A DNA stretch of 64,000 bases from Actinomycetota bacterium (GTDB lineage Bacteria > Actinomycetota > Acidimicrobiia > Acidimicrobiales > MedAcidi-G1): positions 17,375 through 81,374 of the forward strand of contig JAZADN010000047.1 in NCBI GenBank assembly GCA_036123585.1, given 5' to 3'. The position numbers and the translations under genes are program-made. This document shows positions 2,964 to 50,757 of the stretch, one piece after another. Position 1 is the stretch's first letter, and each line of letters begins with the position of its first letter. Under the pieces are notes generated by a model. That model saw only the letters and a program-made list of their open reading frames with translations, was not told where the DNA came from and did not search any database.

Positions 2964-3842
2964 TCACCGGGAATGGGCGCCTGAAAGGCTGGTCGCCAGG
3001 CCTTCGTCGTTGGCCGGACGGCTGCGGGACAAAAACGCTCCAGCGTCGGCCAGGACGAACTGCCCGGTCACGCACCGGGCTAGGTCGCTGGTCAGGAAGA
3101 CGGCCATGCGGGCCAGTTCGTCGTGGTCGACCATGCGCCGTAGCGGTGTCGACGCCACCAGAGCGGCCACGCGGTCCTCGGTGAACGCAGCGGCCACCGT
3201 CTCGGTCAGCGTGGTGCCCGGTGCCATGGCGTTGACCCGTATCCCTTCAGGGCCCAACTCGACGGCCATGGTGGTCACCAGATGGTTGAGGGCTGCCTTG
3301 GCCGCCGCATAGGCGCTGTTGTAGGGCGCCGGACGGGTGGTCTCGCCGGACGTCACGAAGAGGATGACGCCGTCGCCCGATCCGTCGGCGGGGCGACCGT
3401 CCTCGGAGCGGGCCAGCATCGCCTCGGCAGCGGCACGACCGCACAGAGCAGCCTGCACAAGGTTCTGGTCGACGATGTCGCGCCAGTCATCGCCCCAGGT
3501 GTCGGTGAACGGCCGGGGTCGCCGACCTTTCGGGAGCATCCCCACGTTGGCCACGGTCACGTCGAGCCTGCCTAGGCGGTCGACGGTGGTCGCCACCATG
3601 GCCTCCACAGCCTCATCGTCCCGGCAGTCCGCAGGCACGGCCACTGCGGAACCGGTCCCCTTCTCGGCCTCCGCTTCGGCGTTGATCTCCGAGGTGACGG
3701 CCTCGGCTCGCTCGGGGACTAGATCGTTGACGGCCACCGCGGCGCCGGAACGGGCCAGCCAACGGGCGATCTCCCGACCGATGCCGGCGCCCGCACCGGT
3801 GACCAGCGCCCGCCTTCCCGCGTGGTTGATCGAGATGCTCAT
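2964..3842 (-). CDS. SDR-family oxidoreductase (last gene of the UGSC operon)
   Basis: VTGAGAGIGREIA and YAAAKAAL motifs. Its ATG overlaps the UGSC gene stop (ATGA at 3839-3842). Confidence 0.85.
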   Translation of the reverse strand: MSISINHAGRRALVTGAGAGIGREIARWLARSGAAVAVNDLVPERAEAVTSEINAEAEAEKGTGSAVAVPADCRDDEAVEAMVATTVDRLGRLDVTVANVGMLPKGRRPRPFTDTWGDDWRDIVDQNLVQAALCGRAAAEAMLARSEDGRPADGSGDGVILFVTSGETTRPAPYNSAYAAAKAALNHLVTTMAVELGPEGIRVNAMAPGTTLTETVAAAFTEDRVAALVASTPLRRMVDHDELARMAVFLTSDLARCVTGQFVLADAGAFLSRSRPANDEGLATSLSGAHSR

Positions 3843-4381
3843 CGTGCCCTCCCTTCCGCCGTATGGCCCCCGGTCAGCAGGGCCAGCACCTCATCGACCA
3901 CGCCGTCGGCGCGACGTCGGATTTCGTCGGGATCGACGCCGCCGATGGGGTGGGCCACCGACACCATCCGCAGGTCGGGAAGGCCGAAGTCGGCAGCTGT
4001 CCGGGTAGCCAGGTCGCTCAGGGCGCTGGTGGCCACCAGCACGGTGGGTCGACCGGCCTGCTCGAGGTGGATTGAGTCGTGGACACTCCACGACGTGCAA
4101 CTCCCTCAATCGGCAGTGCCGGTGAGGATGACGTCGACCTCCTCGGCCAATAGGCCGAGGACTTGGTCCTCACAGGCGGTGGCCGCGTTCTTGGTCTCGG
4201 TGCGGACCACGGTTGCTCCGGTGCGGTCTGCCAGCCTTTCGGCGAGTTGCCCCAGGAGCACGTCGGCGTTGGGCTTTCGGTTGTCGAGGATGCCGATACG
4301 CCGTCCGGCTAGGACCGTTGGCGAGGGGGCCAACTCGGCCGGTGGCTGGGCGAAGCCTCCATCAGGTCGGTAGATCAGCAC
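3839..4381 (-). CDS. UGSC-motif selenoprotein (180 aa, in-frame TGA = Sec at codon 92)
   Basis: ORF fragments 4106..4381 and 3839..4042 are in the same frame (339 nt apart). They are joined by TGA (4106-4108) plus 21 sense codons. Read-through gives ...VILTGTAD-U-GSCTSWSVHDSIHLEQAGRPTVLVATSAL... The downstream fragment has no ATG or RBS of its own. selA, selB and selC are present in the window. Confidence 0.8.
4076..4094 (-). promoter_or_regulatory. candidate bacterial SECIS hairpin
   Basis: On the mRNA: UGA + 11 nt (GGGAGUUGCAC), then GUCGUGG-AGUGU-CCACGAC. This is a perfect 7-bp stem with a 5-nt loop containing GU. Confidence 0.55.
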
Positions 4382-5439
4382 GGTCGGCCTTCCGGTTCTT
4401 GAATGGGAAGGGTGACGCTGCGAGTCATACCCCAGCTGGGGACCACAGAGCTGTGTTTCCCTGGCCCGCCGACGACCATGGTCCGCACGTTGTCGGGGTG
4501 CTCCGTCATGGGCACCAGTTCATCGTCGGCCAACTGATCCATCCACGAAGCCCAGGCCCGTAGGCCGAAGGCCCGCTTCAACTCGCCGGCCGGCAGCCGG
4601 GCCCTCTGGAACAGGTAGGACGACACGTCGCGGCGCGACCAGCCGGCGGCCGCGCAGGTGGCGGCGTGCTCGGGGCACAGCAGCACGAAGAACTCGCCCT
4701 GGCTGATGCAGGCGTTGTTCTGGGCGGTGGTGGCCATGGCTGACGCCACCTTGTCGAGGATGCGGGCTGGGTCGTCGGACTCCATGTCGTGCACGTTGTG
4801 GGGAGCCTCACCGCAGTGGACGGTCACCGCCGAGGGGGCCTCCATGCCGATGGCGGATGGGTAGAGAGGCCACGGCGAGGCGTCGGCGTTCTCGGCCACG
4901 CAGAGTCCATACTTGGCCGGGCCTCCCTGGGTTGAGGCATCGCCGTCACCTGGGATGGCTCCGGCCACGTGGAGGAGCACCAGCCGCAGGGCCCGACCGG
5001 TGGTGGCGTTGGCCCGGTTGCCGGGTCCGAGGGCACCGCGGCCGCCGTTGTAGCCGCCGCTGCGGGCCACCTCGCCGTGGACCACCACCAGGGGCGCCAC
5101 GTTGTGGGTGGTGGCGTTGACACCCCGCAGGTTCACCTCAGGGCGGGCCAGGGCCCGCACGGCGGCGACCAGGACCGGCAGGTGTTCGGGACGACAGCCA
5201 GCCATCACCGCGTTGACGGCCAGGGTCCGTCGGGTGGCTTCGCCAAAACGGGGAGGGAGGACGGCCACCACCTCGTCGGGGTCGGTTCTCGGACACCCGA
5301 GGAGCATGGCGTCGACTCGTTCGGTGGTGGGGGCGACCACCGGCAGTCCGTCGCCCCAGCCGTGCTCAGCCATGGCATCGATGAGGTCGGCGTCATCGTC
5401 TACTTGGAGCAGGTCCTCTGAAAAGATGTCTACAGTCAT
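4375..5439 (-). CDS. conserved hypothetical protein, first gene of the UGSC operon
   Basis: 354-aa ORF with high-GC3 coding look. I recognised no family motif (N-terminus ...HGWGDGLPVVAPT...). Its TGA stop overlaps the GTG start of the UGSC gene by 7 nt. Confidence 0.7.
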   Translation of the reverse strand: MTVDIFSEDLLQVDDDADLIDAMAEHGWGDGLPVVAPTTERVDAMLLGCPRTDPDEVVAVLPPRFGEATRRTLAVNAVMAGCRPEHLPVLVAAVRALARPEVNLRGVNATTHNVAPLVVVHGEVARSGGYNGGRGALGPGNRANATTGRALRLVLLHVAGAIPGDGDASTQGGPAKYGLCVAENADASPWPLYPSAIGMEAPSAVTVHCGEAPHNVHDMESDDPARILDKVASAMATTAQNNACISQGEFFVLLCPEHAATCAAAGWSRRDVSSYLFQRARLPAGELKRAFGLRAWASWMDQLADDELVPMTEHPDNVRTMVVGGPGKHSSVVPSWGMTRSVTLPIQEPEGRPC

Positions 5440-5491
5440 CAGTCATAAGTCTGACAGGTGTTGACACCCGGGGCAAGGCCCGCTTGAATCG

Positions 5492-6103
5492 ATGGGCATG
5501 GCGGCACGTCGCGGGGTCACGGCTGAACAGGTGGTCGAGGCCGCGCTTTCCCTGTTGGACGAGGCCGGGCGACTCGATGCAGTGCGTCCCGCGTCGGTGG
5601 CCGGACGGCTCGGCATCCGCAGCCAGTCGCTTTATGCCCATGTGGACGGCGTTGACGGCCTGCGGCGCCTGCTCGCTCTGCGGTGTCTCAGCGACTTGTC
5701 CGAGGTGGTCACGATGGCTGCCGTCGGCCGGTCGGGGCGTGACGCCGTGGAGGCCATCGTCCGGGCTCAACTCGATTTCGCGCTCGTCCATCCAGGTCGG
5801 TCCGAGGCCGCCCTCCACCCGCCGGGTGACGACCCTGATCTGGCGGTGGCCATCGACAGGGCCGGCGGTCCACTTCGCACCGTTCTGGCCAGCCTCGGTC
5901 TCGATGACGAAGCCCGGGTCCACTGGGTCCGGCTTCAGCTGGCCCTGACTGCGGGCTATTCGTCCCTGGTTCGAGACGGTCGCCTCACCCTGTCCCCGGA
6001 ACCGTCGACCACCGTCGACCACCTGGTGGCGGCGATGCTCGATCAGCTGCCCGACTTGTCATCCGGCCAGCCTCCTATCGGACAAGAGATCGCTCGCATA
6101 TAG
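5492..6103 (+). CDS. TetR/AcrR-family transcriptional regulator
   Basis: N-terminal HTH region (VTAEQVVEAALSLLDEAG...VAGRLGIRSQSLYAHV). Divergent from the UGSC operon. The start may be the second ATG at 5498. Confidence 0.8.
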   Translation: MGMAARRGVTAEQVVEAALSLLDEAGRLDAVRPASVAGRLGIRSQSLYAHVDGVDGLRRLLALRCLSDLSEVVTMAAVGRSGRDAVEAIVRAQLDFALVHPGRSEAALHPPGDDPDLAVAIDRAGGPLRTVLASLGLDDEARVHWVRLQLALTAGYSSLVRDGRLTLSPEPSTTVDHLVAAMLDQLPDLSSGQPPIGQEIARI

Positions 6104-6223
6104 CCGAGGACCAACTGCTCGTCTTGCCCTGCCCGCCGACTCTCCTGGCCGTCCCGTGATGGACCGTCGGGAGGTCTGCGTCTACCGTCGCGTGGGAACG
6201 GTGAACTCGAGGAGGCAGACGCC

Positions 6224-7636
6224 ATGCGACGACTGATGAGCATTCGGATCGGTGCGCTGCTGGCGATCGCTCTGGTGGCCGCGGCCTGCGGTGGAGGGGA
6301 GTCGGCCGACCCGGCGCCGACCACCGCAGTCCCTACAACGGCTGCTCCGACCACGACGGCTGCTCCGACCACCACTGAGCCGCCCGACGAGCCGCTGGTC
6401 ACCACAACCACCGCACCGGTCGAGACCACGACGACCACGACCATCGTCCTCACCGACTCGTTCCGCGGTGTCACGGCTGAGACCATCAAGCTCGGGTTCG
6501 CTTCGATCGACTTCGAGTACTTCAACGAGACCTTTGGCTTCAACCTCACCTATGCGAACTACGACGACACGGTCGACGTGTATGTCGAGTACATCAACGC
6601 GACGGGAGGGATCGTCGGACGGATGGTCGAAGTTGTCCACGCCCACTTCCTGCCCGTCGGCCCGGTGACTGCCGAGGCGGCCTGCATCGAACTCACCCAG
6701 GACCACCAGGTGTTCGCCGTAATGAACGGATTCGCCGGGCCCGGCGCCGAAAACGTCAACGCCTGCTTCAGTGCCACCTACGACACAATTCTGGTGGGTG
6801 GTAAGCCGACCCCAGAGCAACTCGAGCAGTCGACCGCTCCATGGATCTCCTACGACATCAGCCTCGGACGCCGTGGTCGGGCCTTCGTGAATCTGCTGGA
6901 GGAGACAGGAGAACTCGGTGGCCTTGGACCGGTCATGGTGTTGGGCGCCAATGTCGAGTACGAGCCGATGATGGCCGATGTCAAGGATGCATTGTCCTCT
7001 GCGGGAGCCGAGGTGCCGATCTCCGTGGCTAACCCCGACACGGGCGACGAGACGGCGACGATCGCTTACCTCGAGGTGCTCCTCGAGCGAGCCCGTGGGG
7101 AGGGCGTGTCGACGATCTTCGTGGTGGGCGAGGCCGAATACGCCCTGCAGTACCTGTTCAGTATGGGCGACGAGTTCACCGTGCTCATCCTCAATGGCGA
7201 CTCGGCGAACAGTTGGGCCACCGCGCCCCCCGAGGGCATCGAGCGGTCGGGTCGCCTGCTAACCAACAAGTCCTTCGAATCGCGTGGGGACGCTGACGTG
7301 GCCGACTGCCTGGCCATCGTTGAGGCCGGACTCGGCCACGAGGTTCTGTCCCCCGACCTGCTGCAGGAAGGTGAGAAGAACTACTGGGCTGCCCTGCAGA
7401 ACACTTGCAAGTCGTTCGAGTTGTTCCGCCATATCGCCACGGCCGCCGGGCCTGACCTCACCAACGACTCGTTCCGGACCGCAGCCGAGGCGTTGGGTGC
7501 GTTTTCGTTCACCGGCGTGCCCTATGCCTCGTTGGGGCCGGGCAAGGCAGATGCCCGCGACACCCTGAGCCTCGCCGAGTGGGACCACGAGGCCGGAGTC
7601 TGGATGGCGCTTTCGCCTCCGGTCAACGTCCGCTGA
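6224..7636 (+). CDS. ABC-transporter substrate-binding lipoprotein (branched-chain amino acid type periplasmic binding fold)
   Basis: Signal peptide plus lipobox (LVAAACGGG) and a Thr/Pro-rich linker. The family assignment rests on overall resemblance only. Confidence 0.6.
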   Translation: MRRLMSIRIGALLAIALVAAACGGGESADPAPTTAVPTTAAPTTTAAPTTTEPPDEPLVTTTTAPVETTTTTTIVLTDSFRGVTAETIKLGFASIDFEYFNETFGFNLTYANYDDTVDVYVEYINATGGIVGRMVEVVHAHFLPVGPVTAEAACIELTQDHQVFAVMNGFAGPGAENVNACFSATYDTILVGGKPTPEQLEQSTAPWISYDISLGRRGRAFVNLLEETGELGGLGPVMVLGANVEYEPMMADVKDALSSAGAEVPISVANPDTGDETATIAYLEVLLERARGEGVSTIFVVGEAEYALQYLFSMGDEFTVLILNGDSANSWATAPPEGIERSGRLLTNKSFESRGDADVADCLAIVEAGLGHEVLSPDLLQEGEKNYWAALQNTCKSFELFRHIATAAGPDLTNDSFRTAAEALGAFSFTGVPYASLGPGKADARDTLSLAEWDHEAGVWMALSPPVNVR

Positions 7637-7731
7637 TCTCGGGGCTCTGGGCACCAAGCCCGGTTGTTTCCAGGCGCTGGTGGTCAGGAACGCGACGATG
7701 CCCAGACCCTGGGGTCCGGACATCGTCGGGG

Positions 7732-7821
7732 TGGCGGAAGGTGTGGGATTCGAACCCACGGTGACCCGGAGGCCACAACGGCTTTCGAGGCCGCCCCATT
7801 CGTCCGCTCTGGCAACCTTCC
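7732..7821 (-). tRNA. tRNA-Ser (anticodon CGA)
   Basis: Reverse complement reads GGAAGGT...CGGC-CUCGAAA-GCCG..., with a long variable arm, GTGGGTTCGAATCCCAC T-arm, ACCTTCC-G-CCA end. 90 nt. Confidence 0.9.
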
Positions 7822-7890
7822 ACCGACGAGGCTACTGAGGCCCCCCGGACCGCCCAACCGGAACGAGCCGTGGCTGCAAGGGTACGTGGG

Positions 7891-8370: not shown

Positions 8371-8396
8371 GGGTCGACGATACGCGGGACCGCGGG

Positions 8397-8546
8397 GCGC
8401 GACCGCACCCGTCCCATGTCCGAGGCCGGGCGCGACCGCACCCGTCCCATGTCCGAGGCCGGGCGCGAAGGCACCCGTCCCATGTCCGAGGCCGGGCGCG
8501 AAGGCACCCGTCCCATGTCCGAGGCCGGGCGCGAAGGCACCCGTCC
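8397..8546. repeat. 33-bp tandem repeat, about 4.5 copies (two sequence variants)
   Basis: The unit gcgcga(cc/ag)gcacccgtcccatgtccgaggccgg repeats head-to-tail at 8397, 8430, 8463 and 8496, with a partial copy at 8529. Confidence 0.9.
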
Positions 8547-8552
8547 TCGAGC

Positions 8553-8660
8553 GTGGCGGCCAGGTGATCTGCGGCACTCCGGGGATTCCGCTGAGAGCTG
8601 CTGCCTTCCGGCCCTGACTCGGTTCACGGGTCCCGGTCGCACAGGACCCGACCGCCACAC
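8553..8660 (-). ncRNA. ffs: signal recognition particle RNA (small/4.5S type)
   Basis: The minus strand contains GAGUCAGGGCC-GGAA-GGCAGCAGCUC, the conserved helix-8 motif with a GNRA tetraloop. The 5' GUGGCGG pairs with the 3' CCGCCAC. The ends are approximate. Confidence 0.75.
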
Positions 8661-8722: not shown

Positions 8723-8812
8723 GGAGGGATGCGAGAGCGGACGATTCGGCACGCCTGGAACGCGTGTGTGGCTTTACGGTCACCGTGGGTTCGAATCCCA
8801 CTCCCTCCGCCA
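8723..8812 (+). tRNA. tRNA-Ser (anticodon GGA)
   Basis: GGAGGGA...CACGC-CUGGAAC-GCGUG..., with a long variable arm, GTGGGTTCGAATCCCAC T-arm, TCCCTCC-G-CCA end. 90 nt. Confidence 0.9.
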
Positions 8813-50661: not shown

Positions 50662-50757
50662 TGGCGGAGGTGGACGGGAATCGAACCCGCCGGACGGGGA
50701 TCGCCCGTCCCACCCGCTTTGAAGGCGGGGGAGCCCACCAGGTACTCAGACACCTCC
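50662..50757 (-). tRNA. selC: tRNA-Sec (anticodon UCA)
   Basis: 96 nt. GGAGGTGT acceptor, 6-bp D-stem (GAGTAC/GGGCTC with one mismatch), anticodon arm CCCGC-CUUCAAA-GCGGG, 7-bp variable stem (GGACGGG/CCCGTCC), T-arm GCGGG-TTCGATT-CCCGT, and ...CCACCTCC-G-CCA end. Confidence 0.85.

Follow-up and report, generated by a model that had tools for sequence, protein, structure and literature searches.

The DNA analysed here (the window) is a stretch of 64,000 nucleotides from an Actinomycetota bacterium of the Acidimicrobiales (GTDB MedAcidi-G1; assembly GCA_036123585.1, contig JAZADN010000047.1). Its minus strand carries three tightly packed genes, encoding in order a 354-residue protein of an unannotated family (4375-5439; the partner, below), a selenoprotein of the UGSC family (3839-4381, 180 codons, matching NF041046 and PF24696) and a classical short-chain dehydrogenase/reductase (SDR) that is third in the operon (2964-3842, 292 residues, matching PF13561 and PF00106). 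The 3' end of the partner gene reads ...CCG TGC TGA, and its stop shares 7 nt (GTGCTGA) with the GTG start of the UGSC gene at 4381; the UGSC stop TGA (3841-3839) in turn shares 4 nt (ATGA) with the SDR start codon, an ATG at 3842. Both overlaps were described in the first-pass annotation of this DNA and are readily found in the sequence. Purine runs resembling Shine-Dalgarno sites precede both internal starts (GGAAGG 6 nt 5' of the GTG, GGGAGGG 5' of the ATG), and the GTG at 4381 is supported by an alignment of UGSC proteins, in which the N-termini of homologues align with it. Start-stop overlaps by themselves are common in operons; the adjacency of these genes is far beyond chance on the comparative counts described below.

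The UGSC family received its name in 2007 (PMC1976440). In 2008 it was reported to rank with the selenoprotein families of highest abundance in Global Ocean Sampling data and to be commoner in non-marine samples, and a thioredoxin-like fold and a redox role were suggested for it (PMC2398784). The same study noted one fusion of UGSC to an unknown domain, 'Unknown_1', which may be the 354-residue family. Reviews of 2022 and 2026 list UGSC without a function (PMC9312934, PMC13188914). The window locus is an ordinary member of this catalogued, uncharacterised family.

Four independent lines of sequence evidence argue that the UGA at codon 92 of the UGSC gene (4106-4108, minus strand), which specifies the first residue of U-G-S-C, is selenocysteine (Sec). 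The first is the reading frame itself. It holds a single in-frame TGA (4108-4106), within T-A-D-U-G-S-C-T-S-W, and when this codon is read through the product scores 141.1 bits against NF041046 (cut-off 125) and 166.9 bits against PF24696 (cut-off 25, E 6e-49), with one continuous hidden Markov model (HMM) match crossing the UGA. Second, cysteine occupies the aligned position in 27 full-length Cys-type homologues, in which D-C-G-S-C is invariant; among partner-adjacent copies in genome loci with a readable motif, the codon is TGA in 63 and TGY in 10. Third, a hairpin of the selenocysteine insertion sequence (SECIS) type, GUCGUGGA-GUG-UCCACGAC (4076-4094, minus strand), begins 14 nt past the UGA, occupying +15 to +33, with 8 bp, a GUG loop and a fold z-score of -4.1. 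The hairpin was compared across 68 Sec-type homologues, 65 of them distinct, and is found at the equal position in nearly all of the latter. At pair 21-27, 48 have G-C and 15 have C-G; at pair 18-30, 56 have G-C, 3 A-U and 4 G-U; and the loop is GUN in 63 of 65. Fourth, the window contains a tRNA-Sec gene with anticodon UCA (50662-50757, minus strand), 46 kb from the selenoprotein gene, which was found by ARAGORN and matches Rfam RF01852 with 67.5 bits against a gathering score of 47. This tRNA gene argues that the organism decodes UGA as Sec. The open reading frames (ORFs) around it encode NAD+ synthase, a sigma-70 factor, a HAD hydrolase, NhaA and topoisomerase I, and no selA, selB or selD was seen among the ORFs examined near it.

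Public metagenome contigs near-identical to the window, with a partner protein that differs by one residue, have been annotated with the UGSC gene split at the UGA into ORFs of 91 and 67 residues, in both JGI and ENA gene calls. Because the gene is called as two ORFs at its Sec codon, it is mis-annotated in the public records examined. The contigs concerned (L085-L088; JGI Ga0117902_1001382, Ga0117928_1000257 and Ga0105020_1000815, and ENA ERZ23498931) carry the window locus near-unchanged, and past the left edge of the window they continue with genes for a second TetR and a molybdopterin oxidoreductase.

The neighbourhood of the two genes was surveyed in two collection scans, each covering its best 80 loci and with neighbouring ORFs called by a simple rule; the counts describe these samples. 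The partner-centred scan, with one genome per GTDB species, recovered loci from Actinomycetota, Chloroflexota, Rokubacteria/Methylomirabilota, Acidobacteriota, Nitrospinota and Bacillota, from Alpha-, Beta-, Gamma- and Deltaproteobacteria, and from Archaea (Natrialba, Nitrosocosmicus and a metagenome-assembled genome (MAG) of Methanobacteriaceae). When these loci are taken together with the earlier ones, a UGSC gene lies on the same strand within 400 bp of the partner in 84 of 96 copies. The window's order, partner then UGSC, is found in 35 of these pairs and the reverse order in 49; several of the 12 partner copies with no adjacent UGSC gene lie at contig ends or are extra paralogues. The UGSC-centred scan covered metagenome contigs and was dominated by the window's UGSC subfamily. 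The partner is adjacent in 67 of its 80 loci and lies 1.3-1.9 kb upstream on the same strand in 4, and the flanks are too short in 9, so that a partner is present within 2 kb in 71 of 71 testable loci. Two to three paralogous pairs per locus were seen in eight cases (L003, L004, L034, L044, L057, L058, L066 and L083).

The two domains are also frequently joined in one polypeptide. Among the 150 best representatives of the partner family, 56 (37%) contain a UGSC domain within the same ORF. A full UGSC domain is present in 23 of these fusions, and 30 others start just past the Sec codon, arguing that Sec-type fusions have been truncated by gene callers. The rest comprise two proteins with the partner first that are cut at the Sec codon and one in which the partner is preceded by no more than an N-terminal portion of UGSC. 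The natural fusion P0167 (560 residues) was modelled from 83 sequences as a single compact two-domain body, with a predicted local distance difference score (pLDDT) of 92.5 and a predicted template modelling score (pTM) of 0.93. A further candidate, P0086 (549 residues), was rejected as a fusion; it is an over-extended ORF that runs antisense across the TetR gene.

The partner and UGSC are thus co-inherited as a unit across bacteria and archaea, in either order and frequently fused, and it is very probable that they form one functional unit. The first-pass annotation had proposed a three-gene system and asked whether the partner gene and an SDR always accompany UGSC homologues. The conserved neighbour of these homologues is the partner; the SDR is not always present and is a third gene specific to a clade (see below). 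The broader suggestion of an uncharacterised selenium-dependent system is supported.

A few loci depart from the common arrangement. In L109 (1738-2910) a GCV_T-family gene, for a folate-dependent aminomethyltransferase/demethylase, lies between partner and UGSC, and L108, L110 and L114 have a similar gap of 1.3-1.9 kb, with room for one gene. GCV_T also lies upstream of the module in 2 genome loci, and a BLUF photoreceptor gene is found 3' of the SDR in L109. The presence of GCV_T is a possible link to methylated-amine or osmolyte metabolism. In L018 (a Ca. Aldehydirespiratoraceae MAG, 6001-7890) the partner is followed 22 nt on by an SDR orthologue 68% identical to that of the window, and a UGSC gene was not detected in the entire 13-kb locus, which looks like loss or relocation of the selenoprotein gene.

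The partner family is large and has escaped annotation. A word-indexed search returned more than 7,500 clusters at 90% identity, and an exhaustive search returned 4,971 representatives at 50% identity, of which 1,040 have E <1e-30. In RefSeq replicons of cultured strains the protein is labelled "hypothetical protein". No Pfam, NCBIfam or PDB match was found with the single sequence, with 63 close homologues, with 66 diverse homologues (E up to 5) or in PDB profile searches. The first-pass annotation had recognised no characterised domain in this protein, and these searches agree; nor did they reveal the match to an unrelated housekeeping family that would have told against a dedicated system. 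An AlphaFold model of the partner (pLDDT 83.7, pTM 0.86) gave no significant neighbour in a fold search against PDB (best E 1e-3, template modelling (TM) score <=0.3). Class I fumarate hydratase, the Toblerone-fold cyclic amide hydrolases and PrpD appeared among the insignificant matches and are not claimed as kin. Three proteins of 713-741 residues (P0181, P0228 and P0267) consist of two partner domains in tandem, with no UGSC domain.

Conservation within the partner was assessed in 231 diverse homologues with a median identity of 40%. The conserved residues are D30-G31-x-P33, P37, A80-G81-C82, G122, N144, G148-R149, E183, P189-W190 and G324. Residue 82 is Cys in 96% of the sample, H258 is retained in 91% and C180 in 87%; C209 and C255 are not conserved. 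An Fe-S cluster enzyme was considered and rejected, since 3-4 invariant Cys would be needed and only C82 and C180 are conserved; with one or two conserved Cys, a classical Fe-S site is ruled out. Position 82 is encoded as Cys in 149 of 153 copies and as TGA in none. What stands out in the partner is its near-invariant C82 along with Asp, Arg and Glu residues that are invariant or nearly so, in a protein with no known fold relative.

The UGSC domain is predicted from the P0167 model to be a parallel alpha/beta domain of flavodoxin-like type, with Sec at a helix N-terminus. A beta-strand (99-105) leads to D106-C107, C107 being the U position; a helix begins at 108, and C110 lies in its first turn. 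The Sec (or Cys)-x-x-Cys motif is thus placed, in the model, between a beta-strand and the N-terminus of a helix. Foldseek matched the UGSC domain of the fusion model to flavodoxin-like structures, namely the FMN domain of flavorubredoxin, NQO1, MsuE, MdaB and PTS IIB; the E values are weak (~1e-3), with a probability of ~1.0 and TM scores, relative to small targets, of 0.4-0.57. No thioredoxin fold was among the top 50 matches. After the first long strand comes another invariant motif, L-D-N-x-K-x-N-A. In addition, a NifU-like C-terminal domain (PF01106; ~90 residues, CxxC) is present in six of 27 Cys-type UGSC proteins (P0133, P0134, P0137, P0139, P0140 and P0144).

A comparison with selenoprotein B, the Sec-containing subunit of the glycine and D-proline reductases, gave a faint signal. 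When 27 UGSC proteins were scanned singly against NCBIfam with E up to 1, weak matches were returned to GrdB TIGR01917 in 22, GrdF in 19, TIGR01918 in 16, GrdH in 9 and PrdB in 6, each of them scoring well short of the cut-off concerned. Besides the UGSC model, no other family was matched in more than 2 of the 27 proteins (NifU_proper in 2). The selenoprotein B matches always fall over model positions ~300-400 of ~431 (for PrdB, 134-182 of 238), which we take to be the region that holds the Sec of GrdB and PrdB. This recurrence suggests a remote homology between UGSC and GrdB/PrdB, as a lead that stops short of family membership.

In several lineages the module is linked to the thioredoxin system. 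P0159 joins the partner domain and a low-molecular-weight thioredoxin reductase (motif CAVC) in one protein, and at that locus a Sec-type UGSC gene lies ahead and two SDR-superfamily genes behind. The gene order is trxB-trxA-partner-UGSC in Arthrobacter sp. ERGS1:01 (L175), partner-UGSC-trxB in Roseovarius sp. THAF8 (L171) and trxB-TctC-SDR-partner-UGSC-like in Variovorax sp. SRS16 (L176). In V. boronicumulans (L181) a gene for a 305-residue NAD(P)/FAD oxidoreductase, of the size of a thioredoxin reductase, is found together with TctC and a fusion protein. The first-pass annotation had taken a U-x-x-C protein beside an NAD(P)-dependent SDR to suggest a small-molecule reductase system. An SDR is an unlikely electron donor to a U-x-x-C centre; alongside the module, other lineages instead carry trxB, trxA or a thioredoxin reductase fused to the partner.

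The SDR is a well-defined member of its superfamily (174 and 150 bits to the Pfam pair adh_short/adh_short_C2, past the thresholds, with TGAGAGIG and Y-A-A-A-K motifs in the translation), and its linkage to the module depends on the lineage. Of 70 loci in the broad genome sample, just 12 have an SDR gene directly downstream of the module. The window locus and ten others among them are of Actinomycetota type, with the partner-then-UGSC order, and the twelfth (L054, Binatia) has a distant SDR with 26% identity. The 10 other Actinomycetota-type SDRs are orthologues of the window's (46-68% identity); 9 of the 10 lie no more than 30 nt from where the UGSC match ends (in L018, from the end of the partner match). 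In the UGSC-centred sample an SDR orthologue is found immediately 3' of UGSC in 53 of 73 testable loci, comprising 41 of 47 Sec loci and 12 of 26 Cys loci. These counts argue that the three-gene operon is a conserved arrangement of the window's clade and not of the family.

A gene for a TetR-family regulator (5492-6103, plus strand) is divergent from the operon across a gap of 52 nt (5440-5491), as first annotated. Its C-terminal domain matches PF13305 (TetR_C_33) with 45 bits against a cut-off of 26.8 (E 1.7e-11), and its N-terminal helix-turn-helix match is weak (NF010319 at E 8e-5; PF00440 unreported). The 52-nt region presumably contains the promoters and the TetR operator; neither a sigma-70-like promoter nor an inverted repeat of at least 10 nt was found in it. 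The sole terminator-like site found sits within the SDR gene. An orthologous TetR gene lies beside the module in just 3 other loci (L005, L007 and L019).

On the far side of the operon, two amidohydrolase genes and another SDR gene converge on it from the plus strand, again as first annotated. They are an ORF cut by the window edge (52-657), whose full-length counterpart on public contigs is an Amidohydro_2 gene, an intact Amidohydro_2 gene (699-2006) and the second SDR gene (2006-2917). These convergent genes and a solute-binding protein gene are specific to the window organism and are not conserved with the module. Elsewhere in the window, a 33-bp tandem repeat (8395-8546; 4.6 copies, 98% identity) adjoins a signal recognition particle (SRP) RNA gene (8555-8653, minus strand). 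The repeat and the SRP RNA gene are flanked by two tRNA-Ser genes (7732-7821 and 8723-8812), and the repeat gives long spurious repeat-peptide ORFs on both strands.

The genes found near the module in other genomes are varied but share one character. Coenzyme A (CoA) enzymes are represented by family III CoA transferases, CoA-ester and HMG-CoA lyases, enoyl-CoA hydratases and acyl-CoA dehydrogenases, and transporters by the TctC, TRAP and TAXI carboxylate systems. Further neighbours include Amidohydro_2, DUF6282, luciferase-like oxidoreductases, the isocitrate lyase/PEP mutase family, RraA, MmgE/PrpD, aconitase X with DUF126, GCV_T, phosphosulfolactate synthase and enolase-like proteins. Such a mix points to the breakdown of small organic acids, most of them di- or tricarboxylic, and not to housekeeping redox defence. 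Two particular associations recur in distant hosts. A UGSC-partner fusion of ~560-575 residues, annotated as hypothetical, adjoins aconitase X and the DUF126 small subunit on Vibrio europaeus pVEu (L172) and Sporomusa termitida pSPTER (L173), whose hosts are unrelated bacteria. A phosphosulfolactate synthase (ComA-like) gene is found a few genes from the module both in the archaeon Natrinema zhouii (L174) and in the actinobacterium Arthrobacter sp. ERGS1:01 (L175).

The reading that we favour, and consider somewhat better than even, is that the locus encodes a thioredoxin-dependent two-subunit selenoenzyme, composed of UGSC and its partner, which acts on a small organic acid. In the proposed mechanism the partner subunit would bind the substrate and the UGSC selenolate would attack or reduce it. 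Cys95 would then resolve the adduct, giving a selenenyl-sulfide. Selenoprotein B of the glycine and D-proline reductases is established to work by such selenolate attack and selenenyl-sulfide formation. A relay of thioredoxin and thioredoxin reductase would re-reduce the selenenyl-sulfide to the selenol, and in the window organism this would be a housekeeping relay. The co-translated SDR of the window's clade may catalyze an adjacent NAD(P)-dependent hydroxyl/keto step on the same substrate, perhaps creating a carbonyl that activates the alpha position, and TetR may act as a local regulator that senses the substrate.

Several observations weigh against this selenoenzyme reading. A gene resembling thioredoxin reductase lies near the module in just 3 of 85 genome loci, and in the 80 loci of the window's clade none was found up to 3 kb from the module, so that a housekeeping system would have to serve in the window organism. 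Neither position of U/C-x-x-C is Cys in about 11 of the 23 full-length fusions (P0162, P0163, P0190, P0217, P0218, P0241, P0242, P0251, P0254, P0257 and P0258 are among the Cys-less fusions), implying that some relatives work with no redox centre and that a sub-branch keeps the domain and not the redox couple. The similarity to selenoprotein B is slight for the window's own protein, which scores 12-21 bits against TIGR01918, TIGR01917 and TIGR04483, models with cut-offs of 65-800. The partner has no similarity to GrdE or PrdA and no evident pyruvoyl-forming site. For the operon genes of the window we infer both co-transcription and complex formation.

Some of these same observations would be explained if the partner-UGSC pair were a non-redox enzyme, with Sec or Cys acting as nucleophile or general base, as in a Michael-addition isomerase, a racemase or a lyase. 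The substrates would be unsaturated or substituted dicarboxylates, and the thioredoxin system would merely keep the selenol reduced. Fusions that lack the Cys pair fit such an enzyme, as do the absence of a nearby reductase gene in the window's clade and the neighbours of hydro-lyase or isomerase type (aconitase X, MmgE/PrpD, enolase-like); a weak UGSC profile match to Asp/Glu racemase (E 0.04) is in the same vein, but it does not span a catalytic Cys. Against a non-redox enzyme stands the strict U/C-x-x-C spacing at a helix N-terminus, which is a hallmark of redox couples, and the occurrence of trxB and trxA within operons and of a partner fused to thioredoxin reductase suggests a stoichiometric input of electrons. 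A non-redox function is therefore unlikely, though it is the most serious of the alternatives.

A redox function of another sort follows from the earlier literature. UGSC might be a thioredoxin-like antioxidant or a protein-disulfide oxidoreductase, with the 354-residue protein as its substrate or scaffold. The UxxC motif and the association with the thioredoxin system agree with this, and Zhang and Gladyshev proposed a thioredoxin-like fold and redox role (PMC2398784). However, the UGSC domain of the fusion model matches flavodoxin-like alpha/beta structures and no thioredoxin folds, the contexts are catabolic operons with transporters and CoA enzymes, and the occurrence of several paralogous pairs per locus better suits substrate-diversified enzymes than redox proteins of a housekeeping kind. 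We regard this explanation as quite improbable.

A third alternative concerns only the flanking genes and is compatible with the other readings, namely that the SDR and TetR genes are adjacent through operon packing alone and contribute nothing to what the UGSC pair does. Most lineages with the UGSC-then-partner order lack the SDR, consistent with its low count downstream of the module in the broad sample, and the TetR is seldom conserved beside the module. On the other hand, orthologous SDR genes abut UGSC in most testable loci of the clade, in Sec and Cys forms alike, and SDRs recur in independent arrangements, as in Variovorax SRS16 and at the P0159 locus. Mere packing is accordingly an improbable account as well. 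Finally, the proposal that the UGA is a true stop and the region two small unrelated ORFs of 91 and 67 residues, as the JGI and ENA gene calls would have it, deserves almost no credence in the face of the single HMM match across the UGA, the full-length homologues with Cys there, the covariation of the SECIS hairpin and the tRNA-Sec gene within the window.

Returning to the two-subunit selenoenzyme, a more specific version can be put forward tentatively, and we would not yet wager on it. UGSC and its partner may constitute a distinct, widespread class of selenoenzyme, in which a Sec domain derived remotely from Stickland-type selenoprotein B works with a partner of unseen fold that has replaced the pyruvoyl subunit. 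Such an enzyme would serve the aerobic breakdown of methylated osmolytes or of small di- or tricarboxylic acids through a reductive step, either cleavage of a C-X bond or reduction of an ene group. If this were true, a selenoprotein that ranks with the most abundant in aquatic microbial communities would gain a function. Irrespective of that outcome, the pairing with a "hypothetical" family of ~5,000 clusters at 50% identity, the thioredoxin-reductase link in cultured strains and the faint link to GrdB/PrdB turn the UGSC entry into a testable enzyme system. The results also flag a systematic mis-annotation, in that gene calls on the public contigs examined break the Sec gene in two, and Sec-type fusions appear N-terminally truncated in the protein library. 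Cultured hosts of Cys-type or annotated copies provide experimental entry points, among them Arthrobacter sp. ERGS1:01, Roseovarius sp. THAF8, Variovorax sp. SRS16 and several haloarchaea. In the literature searched, we found no report of the two-way obligate pairing, of the size and "dark" status of the partner family or of a flavodoxin-like model; the recurrent GrdB/PrdB signal, the thioredoxin-linked operons of cultured strains and the clade-specific SDR were likewise not found there.

Among known systems a close comparison is with selenoprotein B, in which a Sec subunit functions only together with a partner subunit that binds substrate (GrdB, GrdF or GrdH with GrdE; PrdB with PrdA), which recalls the pairing of UGSC with the 354-residue protein. 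The glycine and D-proline reductases use a dithiol or thioredoxin-type reductant. At 180 residues UGSC is smaller than PrdB (~240) and GrdB (~435), and its partner has no detectable likeness to the pyruvoyl proproteins GrdE and PrdA of the selenoprotein B systems. No GrdA, GrdC or GrdD gene accompanies the UGSC module, and the neighbour annotation of the loci surveyed contained no Grd or Prd families. The hosts differ too, those of UGSC being mostly aerobic Actinomycetota, Chloroflexota, Proteobacteria and haloarchaea, whereas Stickland reductases belong to amino-acid-fermenting clostridia. The active-site motif U-x-x-C is shared with PrdB (PMC2398784, Table 2).

UGSC also resembles the UxxC/CxxC selenoproteins of thioredoxin fold (Trx-like, Prx-like and DsbA-like) in that two residues separate the members of its redox couple, which sits at the N-terminus of a helix, and in its genetic association with thioredoxin reductase in some lineages. 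It differs from them in its predicted flavodoxin-like fold and in its obligate, large partner subunit, which has no known fold relative. Within its own family the window protein is a full member, scoring above both the NF041046 and PF24696 cut-offs and possessing the D-U-G-S-C motif and the SECIS hairpin. The UGSC literature depicts a stand-alone protein with a probable thioredoxin-like fold; here, UGSC is one half of an obligate pair, and its model is flavodoxin-like.

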